From Patescibacteria group bacterium (GTDB lineage Bacteria > Patescibacteriota > UBA1384 > XYA2-FULL-43-10 > 1-14-0-10-43-13), in NCBI GenBank assembly GCA_041671645.1, contig JBAZBD010000001.1, forward strand, positions 21,561 through 85,560: 64,000 nt of DNA. Direction: 5' to 3'. Shown in pieces: positions 3,548-40,092 of the stretch (positions are counted from its first letter, which is position 1; each line of letters opens with the position of its first letter). The notes beneath the pieces are model-generated. The model was given only the letters and a program-made list of their open reading frames with translations. It was not told the origin of the DNA and ran no database searches. A program made the translations under genes and the position numbers.

Positions 3548-5878
3548 CTAGCGATCTATGATGTTACCGAGTAATATTCTTTTTTCGACTGAAGCAATGA
3601 CTTTGCGGGTCTGGAAGACGACATCAGGAGTGACAGAGACGGAGGTCGTACCAGCGCGTACCATCATCTCGGTAATTTCAGGATAGACGCTTGGCGCTTG
3701 ACCGCAGATCGAGCAAGTAACAGAGTGCTTACGACAAGTCTTGATGATATATTCGAGCGAAAGCCTGACGGCTTCGTCGCGTTCATCGAAGATCTTGGCC
3801 AATGTCTGATTGTCACGATCAACCCCGAGAGTAAGCTGGGTCAAATCGTTGGATCCAATAGAGATGCCATCAATGCCGAGGGCAATGAATTTTTCGAGCA
3901 ATATGACGTTGGAGGGGATTTCGCACATCATCCAGATTTTGAAATCTGGCCCCTGCTTCAACCCACCCTTTTCAATTAATTTCATGCACTCTGCCATCTC
4001 GGTAGTGGTGCGGACGAAAGGAATCATAATCCAGAGATTCTTCAGATCAAATTCCTCGCGAACCTTCTTGATTGCCTCAAGTTCAAGTGCGAACATTTCC
4101 GGCTCAGCGATATATCGAGAAGCTCCACGATAACCGATCATCGGATTGTCTTCGACAGGTTCGTATTTCTCGCCGCCCTTGAGCCCGCGATATTCATTGG
4201 TTTTGAAGTCGGTAGCACGATATACCACCGGACGTGGCGCAAAAGCGCCAGCGATCGTCTTCAAGCCGTCTACAAGGGCTTGGACATAATCTTTGCCTCT
4301 CCCATCGGCTACCATTGCTTTGGGATGCTCGCCAATGTTGGCAATCATAAATTCTGCGCGGAGCAATCCAACGCCGTCGACTGGTAAGGCAGCCACCTTT
4401 TCGGCCATTTCTGGCTCTCCCAAATTGACATAAACTTTGGTCCCAGTGATCGGGACTTCTTCGACGAGCGCTGAGCCCTTGGCGGATGCATCCGCTGGGC
4501 CAGGGACAGGGGCTGAAGCGACTTTGACGTTTCCCTTGTAAACCAATCCCTTGGCGCCATCAACTGTGATCATCTGACCAGTTTTCAAAGTAGAAGTAGC
4601 TGTGCCAGTGCCAACTACACAAGGAATGCCAAGTTCGCGTGAAACGATGGCGGCGTGACAAGTTCTGCCACCGGTATCGGTCACAATGCCCTTGGCTTTT
4701 TTCATAGCTGGGACAAAATCTGGGGTTGTCATTTCAGTCACCAGTATGTCGCCCTCCATCACTTTGTCTATTTCGGTTGGTTTGTGGATTATCTTGACTG
4801 GGCCAGAAGCTGATCCCATAGAGGCGGCCGCACCATGAAGAATGACCTCTAGTTTGTCGGCAGTTTGGGGTTGGGAGTCGGCAGTTTTTTCTCCTGACTC
4901 CTGACTTTTGACGCCTGACTTTCCTAGTGTCGTGATTGGACGAGATTGAACAAAATAGACCGTGTCATTCTCTATCGCCCATTCTGTATCCTGAGGCTTG
5001 CCGTAATGTTTCTCGATTGCCATGCCAATCTTGGCTAACTCTAGGATTTGGTCATCGGTAATCTTCTGTTTTGATTGAAAATCCTTGGCGACCGAAACAT
5101 GTTTGTCCCCGCCATCCTTCTTGTGAACAATCTTCCAAGTCTGAGTATTGACCTCCTTGGCCGAAATCTTGAATTCCTTCTTGTCGACGATATAACGGTC
5201 AGGTGTGACCGAGCCAGAAACGATCGCCTCGCCAAGCCCATAACCCGCTTCGACGATCAAGTGGTCCATGTCTTCGTCAACTGGATCGACAGTGAAGAGA
5301 ATACCTGATTTCTCTGACTGAATCATGTTTTGGACAACAGCACAAAGGCCGACCTTCATATGGTCGAATTTGTTAATCAGACGATAATAAATAGCACGAG
5401 CCTCGAAAAGAGAGGCGAAGCACTCGAGAACTGCTTTGGCGACTTGGTCTTTGCTCTGCATATTGAGAAAGGTAGCTTGCTGTCCAGCAAATGAAGCCTC
5501 TGGCAAATCTTCGGCCGTGGCGCTAGAGCGAACAGCGACCGCGAAGCCACCAAGTTTGGTGTATGAGTCTTTGATCTCTGTCTCAAGATCCTTGGGTAGT
5601 GGAGTCTTCAGCATCAACTTCTTGATCTCCTTGGACACAACATTTAGCTTCTTGTTGTCCTCGGGATTGAGACCCTTCAAATACCCGGTAATTTTATTTT
5701 TAATTCCTGTCTTTTCCAGGTAATAAAAATAGGCTTGGGCTGTGACGCAAAAGCCTTGTGGAACGGGAATCCCCGCTCGAGTCATCTCGCCAAGATTGGC
5801 GCCCTTGCCACCTACCTGTGGAATAAAGCTCTTGTCGATCTCTTTAAACCAAAGAATATTTGCCGATTTCTTGGCCAT
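3548..5878 (-). CDS. ppsA: Phosphoenolpyruvate synthase (pyruvate, water dikinase)
   Basis: 776 aa. N-terminal ATP-grasp (IPQVGGKGANLGEM), phospho-His domain (GGRTCHAAIVSRELGIPCVVG) and C-terminal PEP-utilising TIM barrel (GIDGISIGSNDLTQL). Confidence 0.9.
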   Translation of the reverse strand: MAKKSANILWFKEIDKSFIPQVGGKGANLGEMTRAGIPVPQGFCVTAQAYFYYLEKTGIKNKITGYLKGLNPEDNKKLNVVSKEIKKLMLKTPLPKDLETEIKDSYTKLGGFAVAVRSSATAEDLPEASFAGQQATFLNMQSKDQVAKAVLECFASLFEARAIYYRLINKFDHMKVGLCAVVQNMIQSEKSGILFTVDPVDEDMDHLIVEAGYGLGEAIVSGSVTPDRYIVDKKEFKISAKEVNTQTWKIVHKKDGGDKHVSVAKDFQSKQKITDDQILELAKIGMAIEKHYGKPQDTEWAIENDTVYFVQSRPITTLGKSGVKSQESGEKTADSQPQTADKLEVILHGAAASMGSASGPVKIIHKPTEIDKVMEGDILVTEMTTPDFVPAMKKAKGIVTDTGGRTCHAAIVSRELGIPCVVGTGTATSTLKTGQMITVDGAKGLVYKGNVKVASAPVPGPADASAKGSALVEEVPITGTKVYVNLGEPEMAEKVAALPVDGVGLLRAEFMIANIGEHPKAMVADGRGKDYVQALVDGLKTIAGAFAPRPVVYRATDFKTNEYRGLKGGEKYEPVEDNPMIGYRGASRYIAEPEMFALELEAIKKVREEFDLKNLWIMIPFVRTTTEMAECMKLIEKGGLKQGPDFKIWMMCEIPSNVILLEKFIALGIDGISIGSNDLTQLTLGVDRDNQTLAKIFDERDEAVRLSLEYIIKTCRKHSVTCSICGQAPSVYPEITEMMVRAGTTSVSVTPDVVFQTRKVIASVEKRILLGNIIDR

Positions 5879-12617: not shown

Positions 12618-12711
12618 AATGTTAAATCTTTATTTCTTAATTCTTACTTCTTAATTTTTATTCAATTTTTAATTAATAATTAATAATTCATTAGAAACTA
12701 GTAATTAAAAA
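12618..12711 (-). repeat. AT-only intergenic cassette, copy A (related to 28872-28978)
   Basis: On the minus strand it reads TTTTTAATTACTAG..TTTCTAAT..ATTAATTAAAAATT..GAATTAAGAAAT and contains the inverted repeat AATTTTTAATT/AATTAAAAATT. It shares ordered blocks with the 28.9-kb cassette in the same orientation relative to transcription. Confidence 0.5.
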
Positions 12712-15979: not shown

Positions 15980-16125
15980 CCCAAAATGCTCTAGGACTTT
16001 TGGGATATCCCATTCATAATAATTATTCTTTTGCGTAACCCCTCCTTATTTAGTCGGGAGCAGGGAGTTCGGAGTCGGGAGATAAAATTGTGGTCTCCTC
16101 CTAACTACTAACTCCTAACTATCAA

Positions 16126-17997
16126 CTAGCTCTGTTTTGGGCAGCTCCCGCCCATATCCACTGCAGTTTCGTCACCGTCCTGGACTCCGTTTGAGCAATT
16201 TGCCGGGACAGCTGTGCCCGTGCCGACGAGCCAGCGCTCCTGCCAGGGTACGTAGACTGACTTGAAAGTCCTGGTTTGCAAATCAGTACCGTCGGCGGCT
16301 GTGACTTTATAATTAAAGCTGGCGGTCGCGCCCTGATGCGATTTCTCAATTCGTTTGGTCTCCCCTGCCGCCATGGTCGGAGTTTCGACATAGACCGGCG
16401 GATCTGGGTTGGTGTAGTCATAAACCGTCGGAGTCGAGACCTCGATTTTCCGACTGTCTTTCGTGCCATAGAAGTCGAAGATGATCTTGGTGCCCTCAAT
16501 CCTTGATTGAATCAAAACCGAGTTAGCGTAATTGTTGACGAACTTGAAATCTGGAGCCGGGTCATAGATCGTGGCGTCCATCCCGACGGGAGGCTCATAA
16601 TACGAAACTCGGTATTTGTGATTTTGGCGATCGGTAATCTTCATGCCCGAATTGAGAGCAGCTCGGAATAAAGTCGAGGACACTTGGCAAAGCCCGCCAC
16701 CAAATTCTGGAGTTGTCGAATTATCCTTGATCACCAGCTCCTCAAGGTAGCCAGTCGAGGCGTCGATAGCGCCCAGGTGAGCCAGAGTCGAAAATTCCTC
16801 TCCTGGTTTGAGCAAAACTCCGTTCAGGGCGGCCGCGCCTACGGTCAAATTGTGCACACGGTTCACCGGAGAGCCTTTGAAATTGGTCATAGCAGTACCG
16901 ATCTGCTCGTTGATACCGAGACTGGCGATATCAGTATCTGCTACGTCCGGCTTCTTCTCGGTGATGACAAGAGCGATGGTTTTGGTATCAGTAGCGGCCA
17001 TATTGGTAGAGACACGGGCCAGAATTAGGCTCTTGATACTCTCTGTCACGCTATCTTGATTGAGCGAACGCCCATTTTTTGAAGGAGTGAAGACGGTCAC
17101 TTTGCCATTTTCGACAATAAGTTTGGAGCTAACTGGTTCGTTGTCTATGCCTTTGGCCAGCGCTTCGCTAAATTTTCTAATACGAGTATCGTTGGTGCTA
17201 AGCTTCATATTGGCATCATCGCTGACGAACCCAAAGAATCCGGCCAGTGTATCTTTGTCTATTTTGATCTCCTGGTCTGATCCAGTTAAAGTGATTTCTC
17301 CGCCGTCAATTATCTGATTTGCCTTGGCCAGAGCGGCATTTGCGTTTTCGATCGTAATCGTCGGCTTGTAATTTTCTCTCTCGAAAGCGATATCCAGGCA
17401 TCGGATCGCCTGGAAACAAGACTGGAAGGCCTCATTCATCTTTAGCTGGTTGAGCCTTTTGCCCTCCTGGCGTTTGTCGACAAGCGTGAATCTATCGCCG
17501 TTGTATTCCAGAGTGTAATCTTTGGCATTTTCGTCAATTTCCTTGGCGATGCTGGCAATCTTTTCGGCCAGTTGAGTCGCATTGTAGGTGTAGACGGCCG
17601 GATGGACAGAATCTTTGTAGACAGTCTCCAATTGCGCCCAAGCCGCCTTGGCGACCCTCTCGTCACGACCAACCTGCCAAAGGCTATTTACTGTTGCATC
17701 CAGATCATACTGGAGCCCAATATCGCTCGGATTGATAGAGTACTCCGCGCCAGTCTCCATGTAAATCAATTTGATCGGATTTTTGAGGACATCTCCAGCA
17801 TTTGATGATAATTCTTCTGAGGCGCTCTTCTTCTTCATCCCGCCCAGGTCGAGTTCGCCGATATGTTGCCGTGGAAAGATTTTTTTCGAGTAAAAGAGTG
17901 AATATCCAGCGAATAGAATCAATGACAACGCCAAAAGGCCCGCTACCGCTAGCAGTCCGATCCGCAGAATTTTCTTCGTTTTTGGCTTAATGTGCAT
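16126..17997 (-). CDS. VanW/YoaR-family secreted protein
   Basis: N-terminal TM anchor, repeated PG-binding-like region and a VanW core (GGGLCQVSSTLFRAALNSGMKITDRQNHKYRVSYY). Start is ATG 17997 or TTG 18003. Confidence 0.75.
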   Translation of the reverse strand: MHIKPKTKKILRIGLLAVAGLLALSLILFAGYSLFYSKKIFPRQHIGELDLGGMKKKSASEELSSNAGDVLKNPIKLIYMETGAEYSINPSDIGLQYDLDATVNSLWQVGRDERVAKAAWAQLETVYKDSVHPAVYTYNATQLAEKIASIAKEIDENAKDYTLEYNGDRFTLVDKRQEGKRLNQLKMNEAFQSCFQAIRCLDIAFERENYKPTITIENANAALAKANQIIDGGEITLTGSDQEIKIDKDTLAGFFGFVSDDANMKLSTNDTRIRKFSEALAKGIDNEPVSSKLIVENGKVTVFTPSKNGRSLNQDSVTESIKSLILARVSTNMAATDTKTIALVITEKKPDVADTDIASLGINEQIGTAMTNFKGSPVNRVHNLTVGAAALNGVLLKPGEEFSTLAHLGAIDASTGYLEELVIKDNSTTPEFGGGLCQVSSTLFRAALNSGMKITDRQNHKYRVSYYEPPVGMDATIYDPAPDFKFVNNYANSVLIQSRIEGTKIIFDFYGTKDSRKIEVSTPTVYDYTNPDPPVYVETPTMAAGETKRIEKSHQGATASFNYKVTAADGTDLQTRTFKSVYVPWQERWLVGTGTAVPANCSNGVQDGDETAVDMGGSCPKQS

Positions 17998-22620: not shown

Positions 22621-23820
22621 TTATTTTAGAGCACTTTTATAGACGTCGAGAGTTTTCTCTGCCGTGTCGGACCAATTGTATTTGGCCGCTTGTTTCAGGC
22701 CTTTGGTTGAGAGCTCTCCCCTGAGCTTCTCGCCGGTGGAGACTCGTGCCATCGCCTTGGCCATATCTTCGATATCGTATGGATCGAAATACAGTGGAGC
22801 ATCGCCTAGAATTTCTGGCATACAGGAAACGTTGGATGAGAGTACTGGCGTGCCGCAAGCCATAGCTTGGAGCGGAGGGAGGCCGAAACCTTCATAGAGC
22901 GAAGGAATGATATAAGCCATCGCGCCAGCGAAACCAATCACCTGCTCCTCGGACTTCTCTGGCAAGAAACCAGTAGTAATAATGGAATTTGGAATTTGGA
23001 ATTTGGAATTTAGGTATTCTCGGACTCTTTTAATTTCTTCCATTACCTCTGGCTCTGCAGGATCGGGTTTGCCCATTAGGACTAGTTGAACAAAATTACT
23101 AGATTCCCGGGTCATGGCTTCGCCTGCCCGAGAATGACAATCAACGACAAACTTCTCATAGGCCTGGATTAGGCGTACGAGATTTTTGTGTTTTTTCCAC
23201 ATTCCGGCATAGAGAAAATAATCGCCGGTGATGCCAAATTTCTCCTTAAAATCTTTGACCTTCGAGGTCTGACCTTTGACCGATTCGTTATATTTCAAAT
23301 CGAAACCGAGATGAGTGACCGCTATCTTCTCTGGTTTGACGCTGAATCTTTTGACAATGTCCTGTTTGGTTGTTTCTGAGACAGAAATTATCTTGGCTGA
23401 GTCTCGAGCCGCTGATTGCATTACCTTCTTGAAGGCGAATTGCTTGATCGGATTAGCTTGGAAGAATTCGGTGAATTGGGTCAAGTCATGGATCGTGACG
23501 ACATAATTGCCCCGATACATGACCGGGTGATTGAACTGGGTAAAGTGCACGAGATCATACTTTTTATGATTCAGAAAAGTTAGGAGTTTGGTCTGCTCCG
23601 CCATGGAATAATGGGGGACGTCCAGAATCTTGGTTTGAAAGTTAGATGATTTTCCGAATGTTGGGTAGGCCTTCAATTTCTCTAGGCCCTGCGGACGGAT
23701 TAATAGTGTATACTCATTTTCCTTATCCAATTCCAAGACTCGGCTCAAAATCTCAAGGGTGTAGATAGTAAGTGAAGAGCCTATACCAATAAATCTGCCG
23801 TCAATTAGAATTTTTTTCAT
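22621..23820 (-). CDS. Glycosyltransferase family 4 (GT-B, GT1-type domain)
   Basis: C-terminal EX7E region (PSLYEGFGLPPLQAMACGTPVLSSNVSCMPEILGDA). The start overlaps the upstream Wzy_C gene by 20 nt. Contains the 7-nt tandem repeat at 22984-23011. Confidence 0.8.
   Translation of the reverse strand: MKKILIDGRFIGIGSSLTIYTLEILSRVLELDKENEYTLLIRPQGLEKLKAYPTFGKSSNFQTKILDVPHYSMAEQTKLLTFLNHKKYDLVHFTQFNHPVMYRGNYVVTIHDLTQFTEFFQANPIKQFAFKKVMQSAARDSAKIISVSETTKQDIVKRFSVKPEKIAVTHLGFDLKYNESVKGQTSKVKDFKEKFGITGDYFLYAGMWKKHKNLVRLIQAYEKFVVDCHSRAGEAMTRESSNFVQLVLMGKPDPAEPEVMEEIKRVREYLNSKFQIPNSIITTGFLPEKSEEQVIGFAGAMAYIIPSLYEGFGLPPLQAMACGTPVLSSNVSCMPEILGDAPLYFDPYDIEDMAKAMARVSTGEKLRGELSTKGLKQAAKYNWSDTAEKTLDVYKSALK
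22984..23011. repeat. Tandem heptanucleotide repeat (GGAATTT)x4 inside GT4 coding sequence
   Basis: Four perfect head-to-tail copies (22984-90, 22991-97, 22998-23004, 23005-11), encoding ..LNSKFQIPNSI.. on the minus strand. The unit length is not a multiple of 3. Confidence 0.9.
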
Positions 23821-25048
23821 CTGTTTCCTTTTTTACATTGGCCAAAGCGACTCCGATCAGGATAAACAAAGAGTAGCTCAAAGCTGGATTATCTGCAAAA
23901 GTATGAAGAAATATGGCGGTGATCGACACGGCCAACAGTGAGAAGAAAAGTCCCAGCTCTTTGGCACGAATAAGGGCAGTAGAGACGAGGTAAGAGATAT
24001 AGAGCCAAAGAGCCAAGCCGATGGCACCAATCTCAAGCAAAAGTTGGATATACCAAGATTCGGAAATTATACCTCCGTATTTGATGGCAATTGGCCCAGC
24101 TGTGCCAAGTCCATTGCCAAAGATCAAAATCGCCGGCTCTGCTAGCCTGTGCGTCACTTCATCAATTGAACTCTGGAGAGCGAAATTGTGGCCGGCCTGT
24201 GATTGGCCATGAGTCATGAATTGCGAGACCGTGGCGTTCGGCCAGAACCAGAGAGCCACAGCCAACGCCACGACAGCGAGACCGATAATTGAAATTATTT
24301 TCTTGACCCTCAAATTTGACTTGATGAAGATGAAGACAAAGAGTGAAACTATCAGCCCTATCAGCGCCGCTCGAGAAAAGGAGAGGAAGACGCCTAGGAA
24401 TAATACGATCGCCAACGAGATCGATAATTTCTTGGCACTGCCCTTGAAAATATTGTTGATGCAGATGAAGAAAGCCGGCAAAAGGTATGAGCCGAGCTGG
24501 ATCGCGCCAAGCAAGAAGGAGGCGCTCCGCTGCAAATCCATGTCGAAGCTGACTAGGAATGAGCCATATCCGTTCTCGACCCCGGGGATGATTATTCGCC
24601 AATAGTCAGCAGGGAGAAACCTCTCCAGTATCGCCCAAATCGCCACGGCCAGAGCGGTGCCAAGATAAACCTTGGTCATTTTTTTGATGTCAATAAGATC
24701 GCCCAGATTGGATAGTCCAAAGAGTAAAACGAGTGGCATGAGGGTAAATCGGAATCCCTCAATCCCCTGGCCCCAGCTTGGTGAGAAGAAAAAGATAGAG
24801 AAAGCGCCAAGGATAAGAATCGCCAGAATCGGCAATTGCCTATACAAATTAGCTTTTGCCTTGGGGAGGATCGAAAAGCGGACAAGCGCGATAAGAGCAA
24901 TTATCAAAATGATTGGCTCATAGAAATGAAGTGCCCAGAAGGAGACCCCGGAATCAATATTAATTGAGTCAAAATAAAAAGAGAGTAACTGCTGGAAGGG
25001 CAAGAGGATGATTAGAAAAGCAAGAAAAATATTAAGAGCTTTTTTCAT
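23801..25048 (-). CDS. O-antigen ligase/polymerase-like membrane protein (Wzy_C family), paralogue 1
   Basis: About 12 TM segments, an SRAALIGL loop motif and the distal WYIQLLLEIGAIG motif. Start set at MKKALNIFL (25048), overlapping the upstream stop by 17 nt. Confidence 0.7.
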   Translation of the reverse strand: MKKALNIFLAFLIILLPFQQLLSFYFDSINIDSGVSFWALHFYEPIILIIALIALVRFSILPKAKANLYRQLPILAILILGAFSIFFFSPSWGQGIEGFRFTLMPLVLLFGLSNLGDLIDIKKMTKVYLGTALAVAIWAILERFLPADYWRIIIPGVENGYGSFLVSFDMDLQRSASFLLGAIQLGSYLLPAFFICINNIFKGSAKKLSISLAIVLFLGVFLSFSRAALIGLIVSLFVFIFIKSNLRVKKIISIIGLAVVALAVALWFWPNATVSQFMTHGQSQAGHNFALQSSIDEVTHRLAEPAILIFGNGLGTAGPIAIKYGGIISESWYIQLLLEIGAIGLALWLYISYLVSTALIRAKELGLFFSLLAVSITAIFLHTFADNPALSYSLFILIGVALANVKKETDEKNSN

Positions 25049-26264
25049 TGTTTTGGCTTCCCTTCCCAAGCAAAAATGCTGAGGCGAAAACGAGCCAGAA
25101 GATGACCGAGAGATCGTTCTTGAAATAGGTCGTGTCAAATAAGCCATGGATCAGGATCGCGGACATAGCGGCGGCCACAAAATATTTGGTATTGCCGACC
25201 GATGCCCTCCAGGTATTTACGAAGAAGCTGATGATGAGGCCGAAAAGTGCAATGATGCCAACTAATCCCAAATTGAGCCAGAAAGCGAGGAAGAGATTGT
25301 GCGGGTGAATTGCGTATGGGAGGCCAAACTGTGTGAAGCTGGGATTGTTGAGGGCCACGACCGCCACCTTGTCCTGGAAGTCCCCCATGCCAATGCCAAA
25401 CAAATAATCTGAATTGATCAGTTGAAAACTGTAGCGATAAATTTCGGTACGCACAGTCTGAGTTGTCAGCAAACTGTCCGCAATTTGTGTCAGGAAGAAA
25501 ATTGCTATTGCAGATATGACGCCAAGGGCCGTCCACTTCAGAAACTTTCCTCTAATGAAGCTAAACGAGACAACCACAAGGCCAGAGAACAAAGCAATCA
25601 GCCCTCCGCTGGATTTACTCAAGACAAGCGCAGTTATTGCGATGAGGATTGAAACTATTTGAACGAAAAGAAGAAAATTGAATTTTCTCCAATTGACAGA
25701 GACAGCGGCGAGAAGCAGGACAGGAACGATGAACATCGTCAGATAATTTGGCGATTCGAAAGGACCAAAGAATCTTTGCTCACTAATATATTGGGCGAAA
25801 GAAGAATCGGTGCTTTGATAAAGCATCGGCGCAATCAGCCCTAGTCTTTGCAAGATAGCCCAGAGAGAAATCAGGAAGAGTGGGACGAAGAGAAGACGCA
25901 ATGATTTGATGAAGCCTTCACGGTCCTGGCCGAAGAGATTGATGATAGAGAGATAAAACATTATAGGGATTACAATCCAGCCCTTGGCGATTCCGAGAGA
26001 GACAGTGCTTGTTCCGTTGGCGATTAAGCTCAAGACAGCGGCAAAAACTACCAGATAAGCCCAGGGAGAGCCCCAGTTCCAGCTCTTCTTCTGTGATAAT
26101 TTCAAAATCAAAACCAAGAAGAAGAAAATGAGAATCAAAAGTTCAAGCGGATTGGTCCTGATCGAGCCGATCAAGGTAAAGCGAAAAATATAGGCCGGCA
26201 AAAAAATTAGTACAAGAGAATAGGCAGCAAAGGAAAACGACCTCAAATTTAATTTATTTTTCAT
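25032..26264 (-). CDS. O-antigen ligase/polymerase-like membrane protein (Wzy_C family), paralogue 2
   Basis: Polytopic protein with SKSSGGLIAL and IHPHNLFLAFWLNLGLVG motifs typical of Wzy_C proteins. 11-nt overlap with the upstream gene. Confidence 0.7.
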   Translation of the reverse strand: MKNKLNLRSFSFAAYSLVLIFLPAYIFRFTLIGSIRTNPLELLILIFFFLVLILKLSQKKSWNWGSPWAYLVVFAAVLSLIANGTSTVSLGIAKGWIVIPIMFYLSIINLFGQDREGFIKSLRLLFVPLFLISLWAILQRLGLIAPMLYQSTDSSFAQYISEQRFFGPFESPNYLTMFIVPVLLLAAVSVNWRKFNFLLFVQIVSILIAITALVLSKSSGGLIALFSGLVVVSFSFIRGKFLKWTALGVISAIAIFFLTQIADSLLTTQTVRTEIYRYSFQLINSDYLFGIGMGDFQDKVAVVALNNPSFTQFGLPYAIHPHNLFLAFWLNLGLVGIIALFGLIISFFVNTWRASVGNTKYFVAAAMSAILIHGLFDTTYFKNDLSVIFWLVFASAFLLGKGSQNNEKSS

Positions 26265-27576
26265 TTTGTTTGAATTGATATGAATTTAGCCAAGCCAAGA
26301 AGACCCAAAACGAAATTACATACAAAGTAGAGAAGAAATTATATTGGATCAGGACCGCCAGCATGCCGAGAGAGAGCGCAATCACCGTAGATTTTTGAGC
26401 GAGCGGAAGTGATCGGGTCGCCTTCCGAATTTCGATCGCCAAGAAGACCAAGAAAAGAAGGAAGAGAGTGAGTCCGACAGCACCGTTCTCAGCTAACAAT
26501 TCCAAATATTCGTTGTTAACTATCAGATACTGGCCGTTTGCAAGCTGTGCAGCCGGAGTGTAAAGATAGCCGAAGCTGGCTGGACCGGCGCCAAAAATTG
26601 GCTTTTTCTTAAATGAATCTATGGCCGAGCCATAAAATCCAAGCCGTTCGAAAGTCGAGTAGTCCGACCTCTGGCTCGGGACAACGTTGGTCGTCTGCTG
26701 TAAAAAACTTGAAGTTAGCTGAACTTTTTGGCCGTCCTTTGGTGGGTTCTTGATGTCTCTAACCATTTGATTGAGCCAAATCAGACCAAAACAGATGCCG
26801 AGAGATAAGATGAATGCGACAATGCCGCCGCCGATCTTGGCAAAACGATTGGCGATAGTCTTATTACAGATTATATAAATCAGGAAGATCAGTAGAGCCA
26901 CGCCCATGCCCAAGAAAGCGCCTCGTGACATTGTGAGCAGAAAGTTCACCAAGAATAGTACGATCAGCCAAAAAGTTGAATTGAAAAACTTAGCTCCAAA
27001 GATATATTTTCTCAGAGATATAAGGATCGGGATGATTAGAAAGTTTGCAAAATATAACGGCTCCAAAGCGACAGATTGAATTCGGGCAAAGCCAAAAACT
27101 TCCTTGGTATAGCGTTGTAGCAAGCCAGTAAATGTTGTCGGGGCGTCAAAAGTGTCTCCCAGGAATTGTACAAGACCGAAAATAGAAATGAAAATAGCAG
27201 CGGCAATTAGGAATTTTTCAATTTTCTCAAAGCTAATCTTGGCGATAACGCGAGAAAAGGAGAAATAAATCAAAAACATAAACAGCCAGAGCAAGGTGAA
27301 AATTAGTCCGCGTTTGGTCGGTGCAAGCATGAAAGAGATCAAGTCTGAGATGAATAATCCGACCAGGATAACCTCAGACCCTCTGAATTTGACAAATTTA
27401 TCCTTGCGAAAGAGGAGGCCAAAAAGCCAGCAGGAAAGGAAAGCGATAGCCAAGAGATAGCTGATCTTGACCGTGAACCCTCCAACGTCGAAAGTCGGGA
27501 TTCGTTCGAAAGGCAGGAAAAAAAAGATGGCTAGGACGAGGCCTGATAGGATGTTTGGTAGAGTAACTTTCTTCAT
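26254..27576 (-). CDS. O-antigen ligase/polymerase-like membrane protein (Wzy_C family), paralogue 3
   Basis: Polytopic protein with MSRGAFLGMG and NNEYLELLAENGAVG motifs. It has a larger extracytoplasmic loop (residues ~270-340) than the other two paralogues. Confidence 0.7.
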   Translation of the reverse strand: MKKVTLPNILSGLVLAIFFFLPFERIPTFDVGGFTVKISYLLAIAFLSCWLFGLLFRKDKFVKFRGSEVILVGLFISDLISFMLAPTKRGLIFTLLWLFMFLIYFSFSRVIAKISFEKIEKFLIAAAIFISIFGLVQFLGDTFDAPTTFTGLLQRYTKEVFGFARIQSVALEPLYFANFLIIPILISLRKYIFGAKFFNSTFWLIVLFLVNFLLTMSRGAFLGMGVALLIFLIYIICNKTIANRFAKIGGGIVAFILSLGICFGLIWLNQMVRDIKNPPKDGQKVQLTSSFLQQTTNVVPSQRSDYSTFERLGFYGSAIDSFKKKPIFGAGPASFGYLYTPAAQLANGQYLIVNNEYLELLAENGAVGLTLFLLFLVFLAIEIRKATRSLPLAQKSTVIALSLGMLAVLIQYNFFSTLYVISFWVFLAWLNSYQFKQNEK

Positions 27577-28871: not shown

Positions 28872-28978
28872 TTACAATTTTTAATTACTAATTTTTAATT
28901 TCTAATCAAATCTTAATCATTAAAAATTTTAAATTGATTAAAACTTAGGAAATACGAATTAAGAATTAAAAGGATAAT
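28872..28978 (+). repeat. AT-only intergenic cassette, copy B (related to 12618-12711)
   Basis: It reads AATTTTTAATTACTA..TTTCTAAT..ATCATTAAAAATT..GAATTAAGAATTAAAAGG with the inverted repeat AATTTTTAAT/ATTAAAAATT. It has the same block order as copy A read on the minus strand. Confidence 0.5.
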
Positions 28979-30232: not shown

Positions 30233-31660
30233 ATGAAAGAAAAACGAGCCATTTTTATCAGTACCGCTTCGCAAATAATTGTGCGATTTTTCACCTTGGC
30301 CTTTACTCTTATCGCGGTCAAACTGATCACAAACTATCTGGGAACCAAAGGAACCGGTGATTATAACACTATTAATACCTTCCTGGGCTTCTTCATTGTC
30401 ATTGCTGACCTCGGTCTATTCTCTGTAGCCGTAAGGGAAATCGCCAAAAATCCAGAAAAAGAGAGAAAAATTCTTTCGAATGTCCTGGCGATTAGAATTA
30501 TTACCGCGATCTTGGCTGTTATCTTTGCGGTGATAATAATGTTTTCTACAAAGTTCAGCCCAGAAGTAAAATTTGGCACTTTGGTCGGAAGCGGTTTTAT
30601 TTTCTTCAATCTGCTCTCGAGCGTTTACGATGTCGTTTTGCAGTACAAATTGCAGATGCAGTTCTCTGCGCTAGCTGAGTTTATAACTCGAATTATTACT
30701 CTGATCGCCCTGTATATCGTAATCAAAAGTCATGGGAATTTTTACTTGATCATGGCGACACTTACCTTTTCGGCGATACTAATATATTTCTTCAAAAAGA
30801 TTTTTTCTGATCGTCTGGCTAAATTCAGACCGGAATTCGACCAGAAAATATCAAAATGGATCTTCGATCTCGCTTGGCCTCTGGGAATCGTCTTCGTCAT
30901 GAATAATCTGTTTTTCAAGATCGACACTCTGATGGTAGCCTGGATCAAAGGATCGGTTGCTGTCGGGATTTATTCAACAGCTTACAAAGTGATCGAGGTG
31001 ATAGTTTTCATGGGCGGTTATTTTGCTAGTAGTTTGAAGCCTGTCATCTCCCGAGAGATAGATCGCGACAAAGAAGGCGTAGCCCGCATAATTCAAAAAT
31101 CGGTAAATATTATGCTGATTCTTTCCCTGCCGGTCACTATCATCTCAGTCGCCTTTTCCAGAGAGATAATCCTCTTTATTAGTAGCCCAGATTTTGCAAT
31201 TGGCGCGAAGGCCCTAATTGTCTTGTCCTTCACTCTACCATTTATTTATCTTGACACCTTGCTTGGTGAAGTGCTCCTGGCCAGCAACGCTCGGAAGTTA
31301 CTTGTCAAAATAGCTGTTTTTATCTTGGCTTTCAACTTTTTGACGAATCTTTACTTCATTCCGAAATACTCATACATGGGCGCCGCCTTTACGACCCTAA
31401 TGTCAGAAATAGTCTTGTTTGGCGTAAATTATTACTATACTAAGAAAATATTGCCCTATTCATTCGACAAAAAAATGATCGCAAAGATATTCGCGATTTC
31501 CTTGATCTCTTATTTTTTCGCCGTAGCGGTGAAACAGGCCACTTCTTGGCACTTCCTGATTATTATGGCTCTGACACTAGTTCTCTACATTCTTTTGCTT
31601 AATGCATGGAAGATACTCACTCTCGCAAGCTTGAAAGAACTGCGTAAAAGCGACCAATAG
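30233..31660 (+). CDS. Polysaccharide flippase (Wzx/MOP superfamily)
   Basis: 475 aa with about 14 TM segments and an N-terminal pattern typical of polysaccharide-biosynthesis (Wzx) proteins. The ATG directly follows the TAG of the cohesin-like gene. Confidence 0.75.
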   Translation: MKEKRAIFISTASQIIVRFFTLAFTLIAVKLITNYLGTKGTGDYNTINTFLGFFIVIADLGLFSVAVREIAKNPEKERKILSNVLAIRIITAILAVIFAVIIMFSTKFSPEVKFGTLVGSGFIFFNLLSSVYDVVLQYKLQMQFSALAEFITRIITLIALYIVIKSHGNFYLIMATLTFSAILIYFFKKIFSDRLAKFRPEFDQKISKWIFDLAWPLGIVFVMNNLFFKIDTLMVAWIKGSVAVGIYSTAYKVIEVIVFMGGYFASSLKPVISREIDRDKEGVARIIQKSVNIMLILSLPVTIISVAFSREIILFISSPDFAIGAKALIVLSFTLPFIYLDTLLGEVLLASNARKLLVKIAVFILAFNFLTNLYFIPKYSYMGAAFTTLMSEIVLFGVNYYYTKKILPYSFDKKMIAKIFAISLISYFFAVAVKQATSWHFLIIMALTLVLYILLLNAWKILTLASLKELRKSDQ

Positions 31661-39970: not shown

Positions 39971-40040
39971 ACTAAGCTCCAATCCGCCAAAGGGCGGAGA
40001 ATTAAGAATATTGAATATAGAATCAAGGTTCGAACCCATA

Positions 40041-40065
40041 ATTCCAAATTCGAGATTCCAAATTC
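40041..40065. repeat. Direct repeat ATTCCAAATTC-GAG-ATTCCAAATTC in metK leader
   Basis: Two perfect 11-mers (40041-51 and 40055-65). Their reverse complement GAATTTGGAAT is also contained in the (GGAATTT)4 repeat at 22984-23011. Confidence 0.8.
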
Positions 40066-40092
40066 AAAAAAGGCTTGCCACCGGCAAGACTT
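40066..40092 (-). terminator. Riboswitch expression-platform terminator
   Basis: Minus-strand RNA GUCUUGCC-GGU-GGCAAGCC followed by U6. The CUUGCC arm can alternatively pair with GGCAAG at the 3' end of the aptamer, giving an antiterminator. Confidence 0.7.

Follow-up and report, generated by a model that had tools for sequence, protein, structure and literature searches.

Within a 64,000-nucleotide (nt) stretch of a Patescibacteria contig (JBAZBD010000001.1, positions 21,561 to 85,560 of the forward strand), referred to here in its entirety as the window, lies a gene for a GT4 glycosyltransferase (GT) that carries a perfect four-copy heptanucleotide repeat inside its coding region. We describe this repeat, its counterparts at four loops of the same enzyme family, and the processes that may have generated and maintained them. 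The features of the gene that bear on the argument are listed below in window coordinates, with amino acids abbreviated as aa.

22621..23820, minus strand: GT4 (GT-B, retaining-type) glycosyltransferase gene of 399 aa, the sole long open reading frame (ORF) spanning the tract
22984..23011, minus strand: perfect heptanucleotide array (AAATTCC)x4 at site D, encoding NSKFQIPNS (aa 271-279), at the end of helix 257-274 and in the loop before strand 280-284
22867..22893, minus strand: EX7E position, E310-x7-Q318, which lies downstream of the array and which any frameshifted allele would lack
23251..23280, minus strand: site B, where a heptanucleotide array has decayed (GTCAAAG GTCAGAC CTCGAAG GTCAAAG AT), encoding VKGQTSKVKD
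23098..23139, minus strand: in-frame palindromic insert at site C (CHSRAGEAMTRESS), aa 228-241, a low-confidence loop in the structural model

Read on the plus strand at 22984-23011, GGAATTTGGAATTTGGAATTTGGAATTT is a perfect and uninterrupted (GGAATTT)x4, as the initial annotation of this DNA had reported, and Tandem Repeats Finder places it at 22983-23011 with a period of 7, 4.1 copies and 100% matches. Its position within the gene, at codons 270-279 and upstream of the E310-x7 motif, was also given correctly; the strand and the unit needed correction, because the gene is on the minus strand and the coding-strand unit is AAATTCC (equivalently AATTCCA). The coding read is CTA AAT TCC AAA TTC CAA ATT CCA AAT TCC ATT, corresponding to L270-NSKFQIPNS-I280. 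Because three units of seven make 21 nt, or seven codons, each position of the unit is read in turn as codon base 1, 2 and 3, and the peptide has a period of seven residues.

The tract is the sole perfect simple sequence repeat (SSR) of at least three copies with a unit of 4-8 nt within the 64 kb window, and one of just two perfect arrays there with a length of at least 2p+5 for a period p of 4-12, a class for which 50 shuffles give none. A three-unit pattern allowing up to three mismatches had no matches across 100 dinucleotide shuffles, and the window contains no G/C homopolymers of seven or more. The array has no secondary structure (minimum free energy -0.4 kcal/mol, z = 0.5), and an internal promoter or terminator was dropped as a candidate, there being no match at the tract. 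That the tract might be a chance arrangement of codons or an assembly artefact has nothing but its low copy number to recommend it and is of negligible probability, given the empty shuffles, an intact ORF that is orthologous to many full-length proteins, and equivalent perfect arrays in independently assembled orthologues. A chance origin of the tract is excluded.

The gene product is identical to NCBI MFA6963131.1, from a 867,751 bp contig of a Patescibacteria metagenome-assembled genome, and Pfam assigns residues 69-176 to Glyco_transf_4 (1.6e-11) and residues 194-375 to Glycos_transf_1 (4.4e-21). An AlphaFold model built with 30 homologues as input (mean confidence, pLDDT, 89) has a two-Rossmann GT-B fold, and its best matches among solved structures in a Foldseek search are MshA, GlgM, BshA, PimA, WaaG and PglA, with E values of 1e-13 to 1e-19. 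At the EX7E position the window protein has E-x7-Q, as do its two closest relatives (P0002 and P0003), and the other 27 aligned homologues have E-x7-E.

Site D, the other loops and period-7 repeats elsewhere

Near-identical site-D peptides are present in distant relatives within the alignment of 30 homologues, including NSKFKIQNS in P0004, NTRYQIPNT in P0006 and NTKYHIPNA in P0039. At the DNA level P0004 (locus L002, 56% identity) has a perfect (AATTCAA)x4 at codons identical to those of the window tract, and this unit differs from the window unit AATTCCA by a C to A change in all four copies; P0063 has an AATACAA-type unit at site D in the same phase as both. Four parallel C to A changes cannot be independent, which argues for concerted evolution, the signature of slipped mispairing within a tract, and slipped mispairing is likely to have acted on the site-D tract over evolutionary time. 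Among 51 homologues with site-D loops of 29-31 aa, residue i matches residue i+7 at both testable positions in 13, indicating that the array at this site is old and persistent. The initial annotation had raised the prospects of orthologues encoding the same peptide without a DNA repeat and of repeat-number polymorphism among orthologues. The first of these, which would have spoken against a switch, is not borne out, as P0004 encodes its NSKFKIQNS from a perfect repeat; repeat number was not seen to vary, with four copies in both site-D orthologues and 4.6 in four orthologues at site B. The closest orthologue (P0002, locus L001, 3785-3824) has at site D two adjacent 8-nt arrays, CTCTGAAC x2.6 and CCTCTGTC x2.6, and no heptamer.

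Arrays in the GT family, which in orthologues are perfect 7-nt tracts of 2.7-5 copies, fall at four sites, A (approximately residues 46-86), B (181-192), C (225-250) and D (270-280), and all four are helix-to-strand connections in the GT-B model. Such connections of a Rossmann domain face away from the substrate cleft. P0002/L001 (78-82% identity) has three heptanucleotide arrays elsewhere in its gene, of 2.9, 4.6 and 5.0 copies, the last two being perfect over 32 and 35 nt, and every orthologue read at the DNA level has at least one perfect 7-nt array, namely L001, L002, L203, L205, L207, L208, L209 and L003. Assembly GCA_964526355.1 (contig CAZGJE010000005.1) carries three perfect arrays within a single gene, and GCA_964543385.1 carries the site-B array. 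A count of nine out of nine orthologues with an array is biased, most loci having been picked for repeat-like peptides, and the unbiased figure is 39/120. L003 (51% identity) was the sole useful locus among the matches listed in a scan of genome contigs with the family alignment, the rest being mostly distant GT4s of 30-38% identity. At site A of L205 there is an 8-nt array, AACAATTC x2.9.

The same loops also hold palindromic sequence. The site-C insert of the window gene has arms CATTCTCGGG...CCCGGGAATC and a predicted DNA hairpin of -9.2 kcal/mol (z = -2.9), and in the closest orthologue this loop contains (AATTCAA)x5.0 in place of the palindromic insert. Other palindrome-derived loop peptides in GT homologues are HPERQRRISGDSSALPQND, SERSESKDL and SFPRRRESR, and together with the site-C insert these resemble in-frame palindromic elements. 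The occurrence of palindromic inserts in the same loops suggests that the loops are generally permissive. Two 21-nt GC-rich palindromes, CCCGCCTGCCGGACGGGCAGG and CCATGCCTGCCGGCAGGCAGG, are located precisely between heptamer units, at approximately 631-651 of L212 and at site C of L203 (codons for AMPAGRQV). These are two lineages and two loops, and at 21 nt, or three units, the palindromes keep both the reading frame and the phase of the repeat.

Period-7 repeats are a feature of the window as a whole, with seven loci (at least 16/21 lag matches), whereas each of the other periods between 3 and 15 has 0-1, and five of the seven are intergenic. Tracts outside the GT gene include the following.

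4891..4919, minus strand: AGTCAGG-like heptanucleotide array, now decayed, in the linker between domains of PpsA (aa ~320-330), a housekeeping gene
12625..12697, no strand: intergenic AT-rich period-7 tract (TTAATTC-like, ~9 units)
16098..16130, no strand: period-7 tract (CTAACTA-like) directly downstream of a VanW-like ORF and overlapping its stop codon
28876..28906, no strand: intergenic period-7 tract (AATTTCT-like) within AT-rich sequence at 28876-28969
40040..40069, no strand: intergenic degenerate array (AATTCCA AATTCGA GATTCCA AATTCAA) whose unit family is that of the GT array, with a GC hairpin after it, within an AT-rich tract at 40005-40069

The two AT-rich period-7 tracts at 16052-16130 are partly complementary to one another. 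Because period 7 is dominant in intergenic DNA, the 7-nt unit reflects a repeat-generating process rather than selection for frameshifting, and a genome-wide bias does account for the unit being 7 nt.

Arrays of the window unit are not restricted to glycan genes either. Scanning metagenome contigs for at least three copies of AAATTCN (AAATTCNAAATTCNAAATTC) yielded at least 120 unrelated loci (L083-L202) with GC contents of 22-67%, and neither the source contig nor any GT orthologue was among those listed. Of the 120 loci listed, 56 have the array inside an ORF of at least 150 aa, and in-frame examples occur in SecA, valyl-tRNA synthetase, a leucyl/isoleucyl-tRNA synthetase, PurL, a UvrD-like helicase, GcvP, MiaA (four times), TrmD (twice), DnaA and PGK. 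Some of these contigs have an AT-rich array within a GC-rich gene, such as L196 at 61% GC. Essential genes, for which on/off switching is implausible, thus tolerate short coding heptamer arrays, and a coding heptamer of three to four copies is not by itself proof of phase variation.

We favour, with a probability of roughly one half, the reading that the site-D tract is a coding microsatellite kept up by slippage in a permissive loop, and that as a switch it is no more than latent and of low rate. A heptamer-specific repeat process, also at work in intergenic DNA and in other genes, would yield arrays that are tolerated at this gene because it is dispensable and has permissive helix-to-strand surface loops. 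Slipped mispairing between units would then hold each array homogeneous, with the same phase and copy number and with changes to the unit appearing in all copies at once. The unit replacements described above suggest that slipped mispairing acts on the arrays much faster than point mutation, in which case one-unit slips must recur, giving null alleles of the GT gene and making the tract a latent mutational on/off site at which only alleles of one, four or seven units would encode a full-length enzyme. The rate of switching at four copies is probably low, and selection for switching appears to be absent.

Conservation of the arrays and a possible contingency locus

Several observations weigh against this reading, and the first is the abundance of arrays in the GT family. 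We asked of each protein whether a perfect 7-nt array of at least 24 nt could underlie any stretch of its sequence, and this is true of 39/120 GT homologues (46 sites) as compared to 0-1 in shuffled proteins; periods of 4, 5, 8 and 10 are at background level, and frame-neutral peptide repeats (periods 1-6) are not found in the same GT loops. Among homologues of PpsA, the phosphoenolpyruvate synthase of the window used as a control, 3/120 pass the same test, a deficit of approximately 13-fold per protein and 30-fold per residue. At the DNA level there are 12 perfect arrays of at least 19 nt in 9.7 kb of GT genes versus one in 84.4 kb of other sequence at the same loci (~100-fold), and with a softer criterion there are 16 and 5, respectively. 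The GT family is therefore truly enriched in heptanucleotide arrays, and genome-wide mutational bias alone was rejected as insufficient to explain this, given 3/120 for PpsA against 39/120 for GT. The repeat-compatible peptides in the three PpsA homologues are at the linker noted above or at a second one.

The second observation is the conservation of site B. An (AAGTCAA)x4.6 array encoding VKSQKSKVKS is nucleotide-identical over 32-34 nt in P0002, P0019, P0023 and P0015, proteins that share just 57-70% identity, and it is the only run of at least 12 nt common to all four genes. Inside the array the codons are identical in all four orthologues at 10/10 positions, versus 17/153 (11%) of the same-amino-acid columns outside it, and on this comparison we reject selection on the peptide alone as the cause. 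An array conserved beyond what peptide selection would give must be either very efficiently homogenised or directly selected as DNA.

These data raise the alternative that the tract is a true contingency locus, in which selection keeps the arrays and slipped-strand gain or loss of units reversibly toggles a surface-glycan decoration, with consequences for phage evasion and host attachment. A surface-glycan role for the gene had been implied in the initial annotation and is well founded, with the following neighbours.

23801..27576, minus strand: three successive genes for polytopic membrane proteins, upstream of the GT gene; two of them match Wzy_C (O-antigen ligase/polymerase-like)
30233..31660, plus strand: polysaccharide flippase (Polysacc_synt/MurJ-like), part of the glycan cluster

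The gene order of Wzy_C, GT and a proton-pumping pyrophosphatase (H+-PPase) is also kept across orthologous loci, and with the Wzy_C-like genes and the flippase this makes the surface-glycan context of the GT sound.

The mechanics of a switch are likewise in place. Altering the copy number in silico shows that one, four and seven copies keep the frame and give products of 392, 399 and 406 aa, and that three and five copies give truncated products of 291 and 311 aa, so that a one-unit change in either direction truncates the enzyme, as had been proposed. Both truncated products are without the C-terminal third of the nucleotide-sugar-binding domain and are presumably null. A perfect non-triplet SSR in a GT of a glycan cluster, at which a single unit more or fewer truncates the enzyme, fits a contingency locus, and the family-wide enrichment and the perfection of the site-B array across saturated synonymous divergence count in the same direction. 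So does the fact that arrays persist at a given loop even as their units change in sequence, and so do the unit lengths, all of which are frame-shifting (7 and rarely 8, never 3, 6 or 9). There is precedent in the heptanucleotide repeat of pglE (PMC7157529), and SSR surveys take three or more units as the candidate threshold for a 7-mer (PMC2651432).

Set against these points are the copy numbers, which are low and constant. The tract has four copies, above the threshold of three yet far below documented 7-mer switches, heptanucleotide phase-variable tracts being reported with 13-38 copies (PMC2651432). The longest array among the 46 sites in the 120 GT homologues is approximately 33 nt, or about five copies, and copy number is identical across deep orthologues. 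No in-frame allele with three additional units was found, though these loops range from 23 to 93 aa. Two thirds of the homologues do not have an array of at least 24 nt, the heptamer specificity holds in intergenic DNA too and so points to a repeat-generating process, and arrays of the same unit are tolerated within essential genes.

Searches for frameshifted alleles gave a similar picture. No frameshifted (OFF) GT allele was found among database proteins, a result of low power because nearly all of the 90%-identity clusters are singletons. An exact-protein look-up of the window GT had no match, and a collection of 15 billion proteins contains no close strain, the 90% cluster of the window GT having one member from one contig. 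A profile search with the N-terminal region recovered 19 short proteins, none of which is an N-terminal fragment of the window-gene lineage. Two of them, P0122 (L210) and P0123 (L212), end at site-B arrays, where the contigs follow the GT gene up to the array (at ~1312 in L210 and ~676 in L212) and then continue into unrelated sequence, which is AT-rich DNA in one and an IscU-like ORF in L212. We rejected both as OFF alleles because the junctions are with unrelated DNA and are not one-unit slips. Both breaks are in Logan contigs assembled at k=31, from samples SRR8542065 and SRR15603315, and either assembly chimeras through shared arrays or real array-mediated rearrangements could account for them.

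The claim that this organism switches a glycan on and off is thus unsupported, in view of the constant copy number, the lack of an OFF allele and the presence of the same unit in essential genes. We consider a contingency locus to be a serious possibility, although a less probable one than slippage in a permissive loop, and the tract is less well explained as a switch kept by selection than as a tolerated product.

A possible function or origin of the array itself

A further alternative is that the array has an independent function or origin. It might bind a protein or RNA, serve as a linker at which GT segments recombine, or be the target of a small mobile element or the trace left by one, the element being of a kind that would put heptamer arrays of ~21-28 nt and 21-nt GC palindromes into loops in-frame. 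The DNA-level conservation of the site-B array is consistent with this, as are the recurrence of the AAATTCA/AAATTCC unit at loops that vary from one orthologue to another as well as in intergenic DNA, the AT-rich arrays in GC-rich genes such as that of L196, and the GC palindromes of L212 and L203 placed exactly between units. Two contigs depart from GT sequence exactly at arrays, but since both breaks lie in k=31 assemblies they may be chimeras through shared repeats. Moreover, the unit at a given loop differs by lineage with its phase kept, which argues for concerted evolution in situ and not for a conserved site or repeated insertion, and the array has neither secondary structure nor a promoter- or terminator-like match. 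We therefore regard an element of this kind as unlikely.

A broader proposal for the family can be put forward only tentatively, as somewhat doubtful. The conserved GT4 gene of Patescibacteria, which belong to the candidate phyla radiation (CPR), might constitute a multi-site heptanucleotide switchboard, with up to four frame-shifting microsatellites per gene that are DNA-perfect over deep divergence and would work as contingency switches, and it may be coupled to an undescribed heptamer-specific process that generates and homogenises arrays and also seeds arrays and 21-nt palindromes elsewhere.

Significance and comparison with known systems

The CPR bacteria are tiny cells that live attached to hosts and have not been cultured, and few regulatory systems are known in them. 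If the arrays described here do switch, they would provide stochastic variation of the surface glycan in these bacteria, with a bearing on phage escape and host attachment, and if the switchboard proposal is true it would be the first SSR-based phase variation described for these uncultured episymbionts. Even without switching, two results stand out as unusual, namely the recurrence of a 7-nt-specific class of repeats at four shared loops of one enzyme family and a 32-nt array that remains nucleotide-identical amid saturated synonymous sites. Taken together they are a clear case of concerted evolution at a very short microsatellite in coding sequence, and they point to an uncharacterised repeat-generating process. 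They also counsel caution, in that phase variation should not be deduced solely from a short non-triplet repeat within a glycan gene, because the same type of repeat occurs in-frame in SecA and tRNA synthetases. In the literature searched we found nothing relevant on SSRs or phase variation in CPR/Patescibacteria, and no description there of a heptamer-specific class of arrays recurring at four constant loop positions in a single enzyme family of Patescibacteria, with copy numbers of 3-5 and nucleotide-perfect across saturated divergence.

Frameshift switches based on SSRs in glycosyltransferase genes are textbook examples of phase variation. The closest parallel to the window gene is pglE of Neisseria, which encodes a galactosyltransferase of pilin/protein O-glycosylation and is phase-variable via an intragenic heptanucleotide repeat (PMC7157529). 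Both have a heptanucleotide repeat in the ORF of a surface-glycan glycosyltransferase, in which a one-unit change shifts the frame. However, ON and OFF phasotypes of pglE are seen among isolates and confirmed by immunoblot, whereas in the GT family no copy-number polymorphism or OFF allele is documented, and the GT genes differ further, the window tract having only four units and a single gene carrying as many as four distinct arrays, each of fixed and low copy number.

Heptanucleotide SSRs are also found in Haemophilus influenzae, as promoter repeats of hmw1A and hmw2A and as an (AATTTTG)14 inside hmw1A of strain PittAA (PMC2651432). The likeness lies in 7-nt units tied to surface structures, and a frameshift has been observed at one H. 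influenzae tract that lies within a gene. The H. influenzae tracts have 13-38 copies, vary among strains and are mostly in promoters, in contrast to the four copies of the window gene and the invariant length of the in-frame alleles.

Two other groups of repeats resemble the GT arrays in their sequence behaviour. The STRR (short tandemly repeated repetitive) heptanucleotide sequences of cyanobacteria reflect a genome-wide preference for 7-nt units, are mostly intergenic and are of unknown function. The preference for 7-nt tandem units is shared with the arrays described here, but the phylum and the unit sequences are different, and to our knowledge STRRs do not form recurrent in-frame arrays in one enzyme family. 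Rickettsia palindromic elements are mobile palindromic elements of ~100-150 bp that insert in-frame into coding genes. As with these elements, the heptamer arrays are repeats tolerated in-frame at surface loops in many unrelated proteins, among them essential ones, and the GT loops hold palindromic inserts too. The site-D array differs in being a 28-nt tandem heptamer with no secondary structure, whose unit varies by lineage at the same site and has changed in concert in situ.

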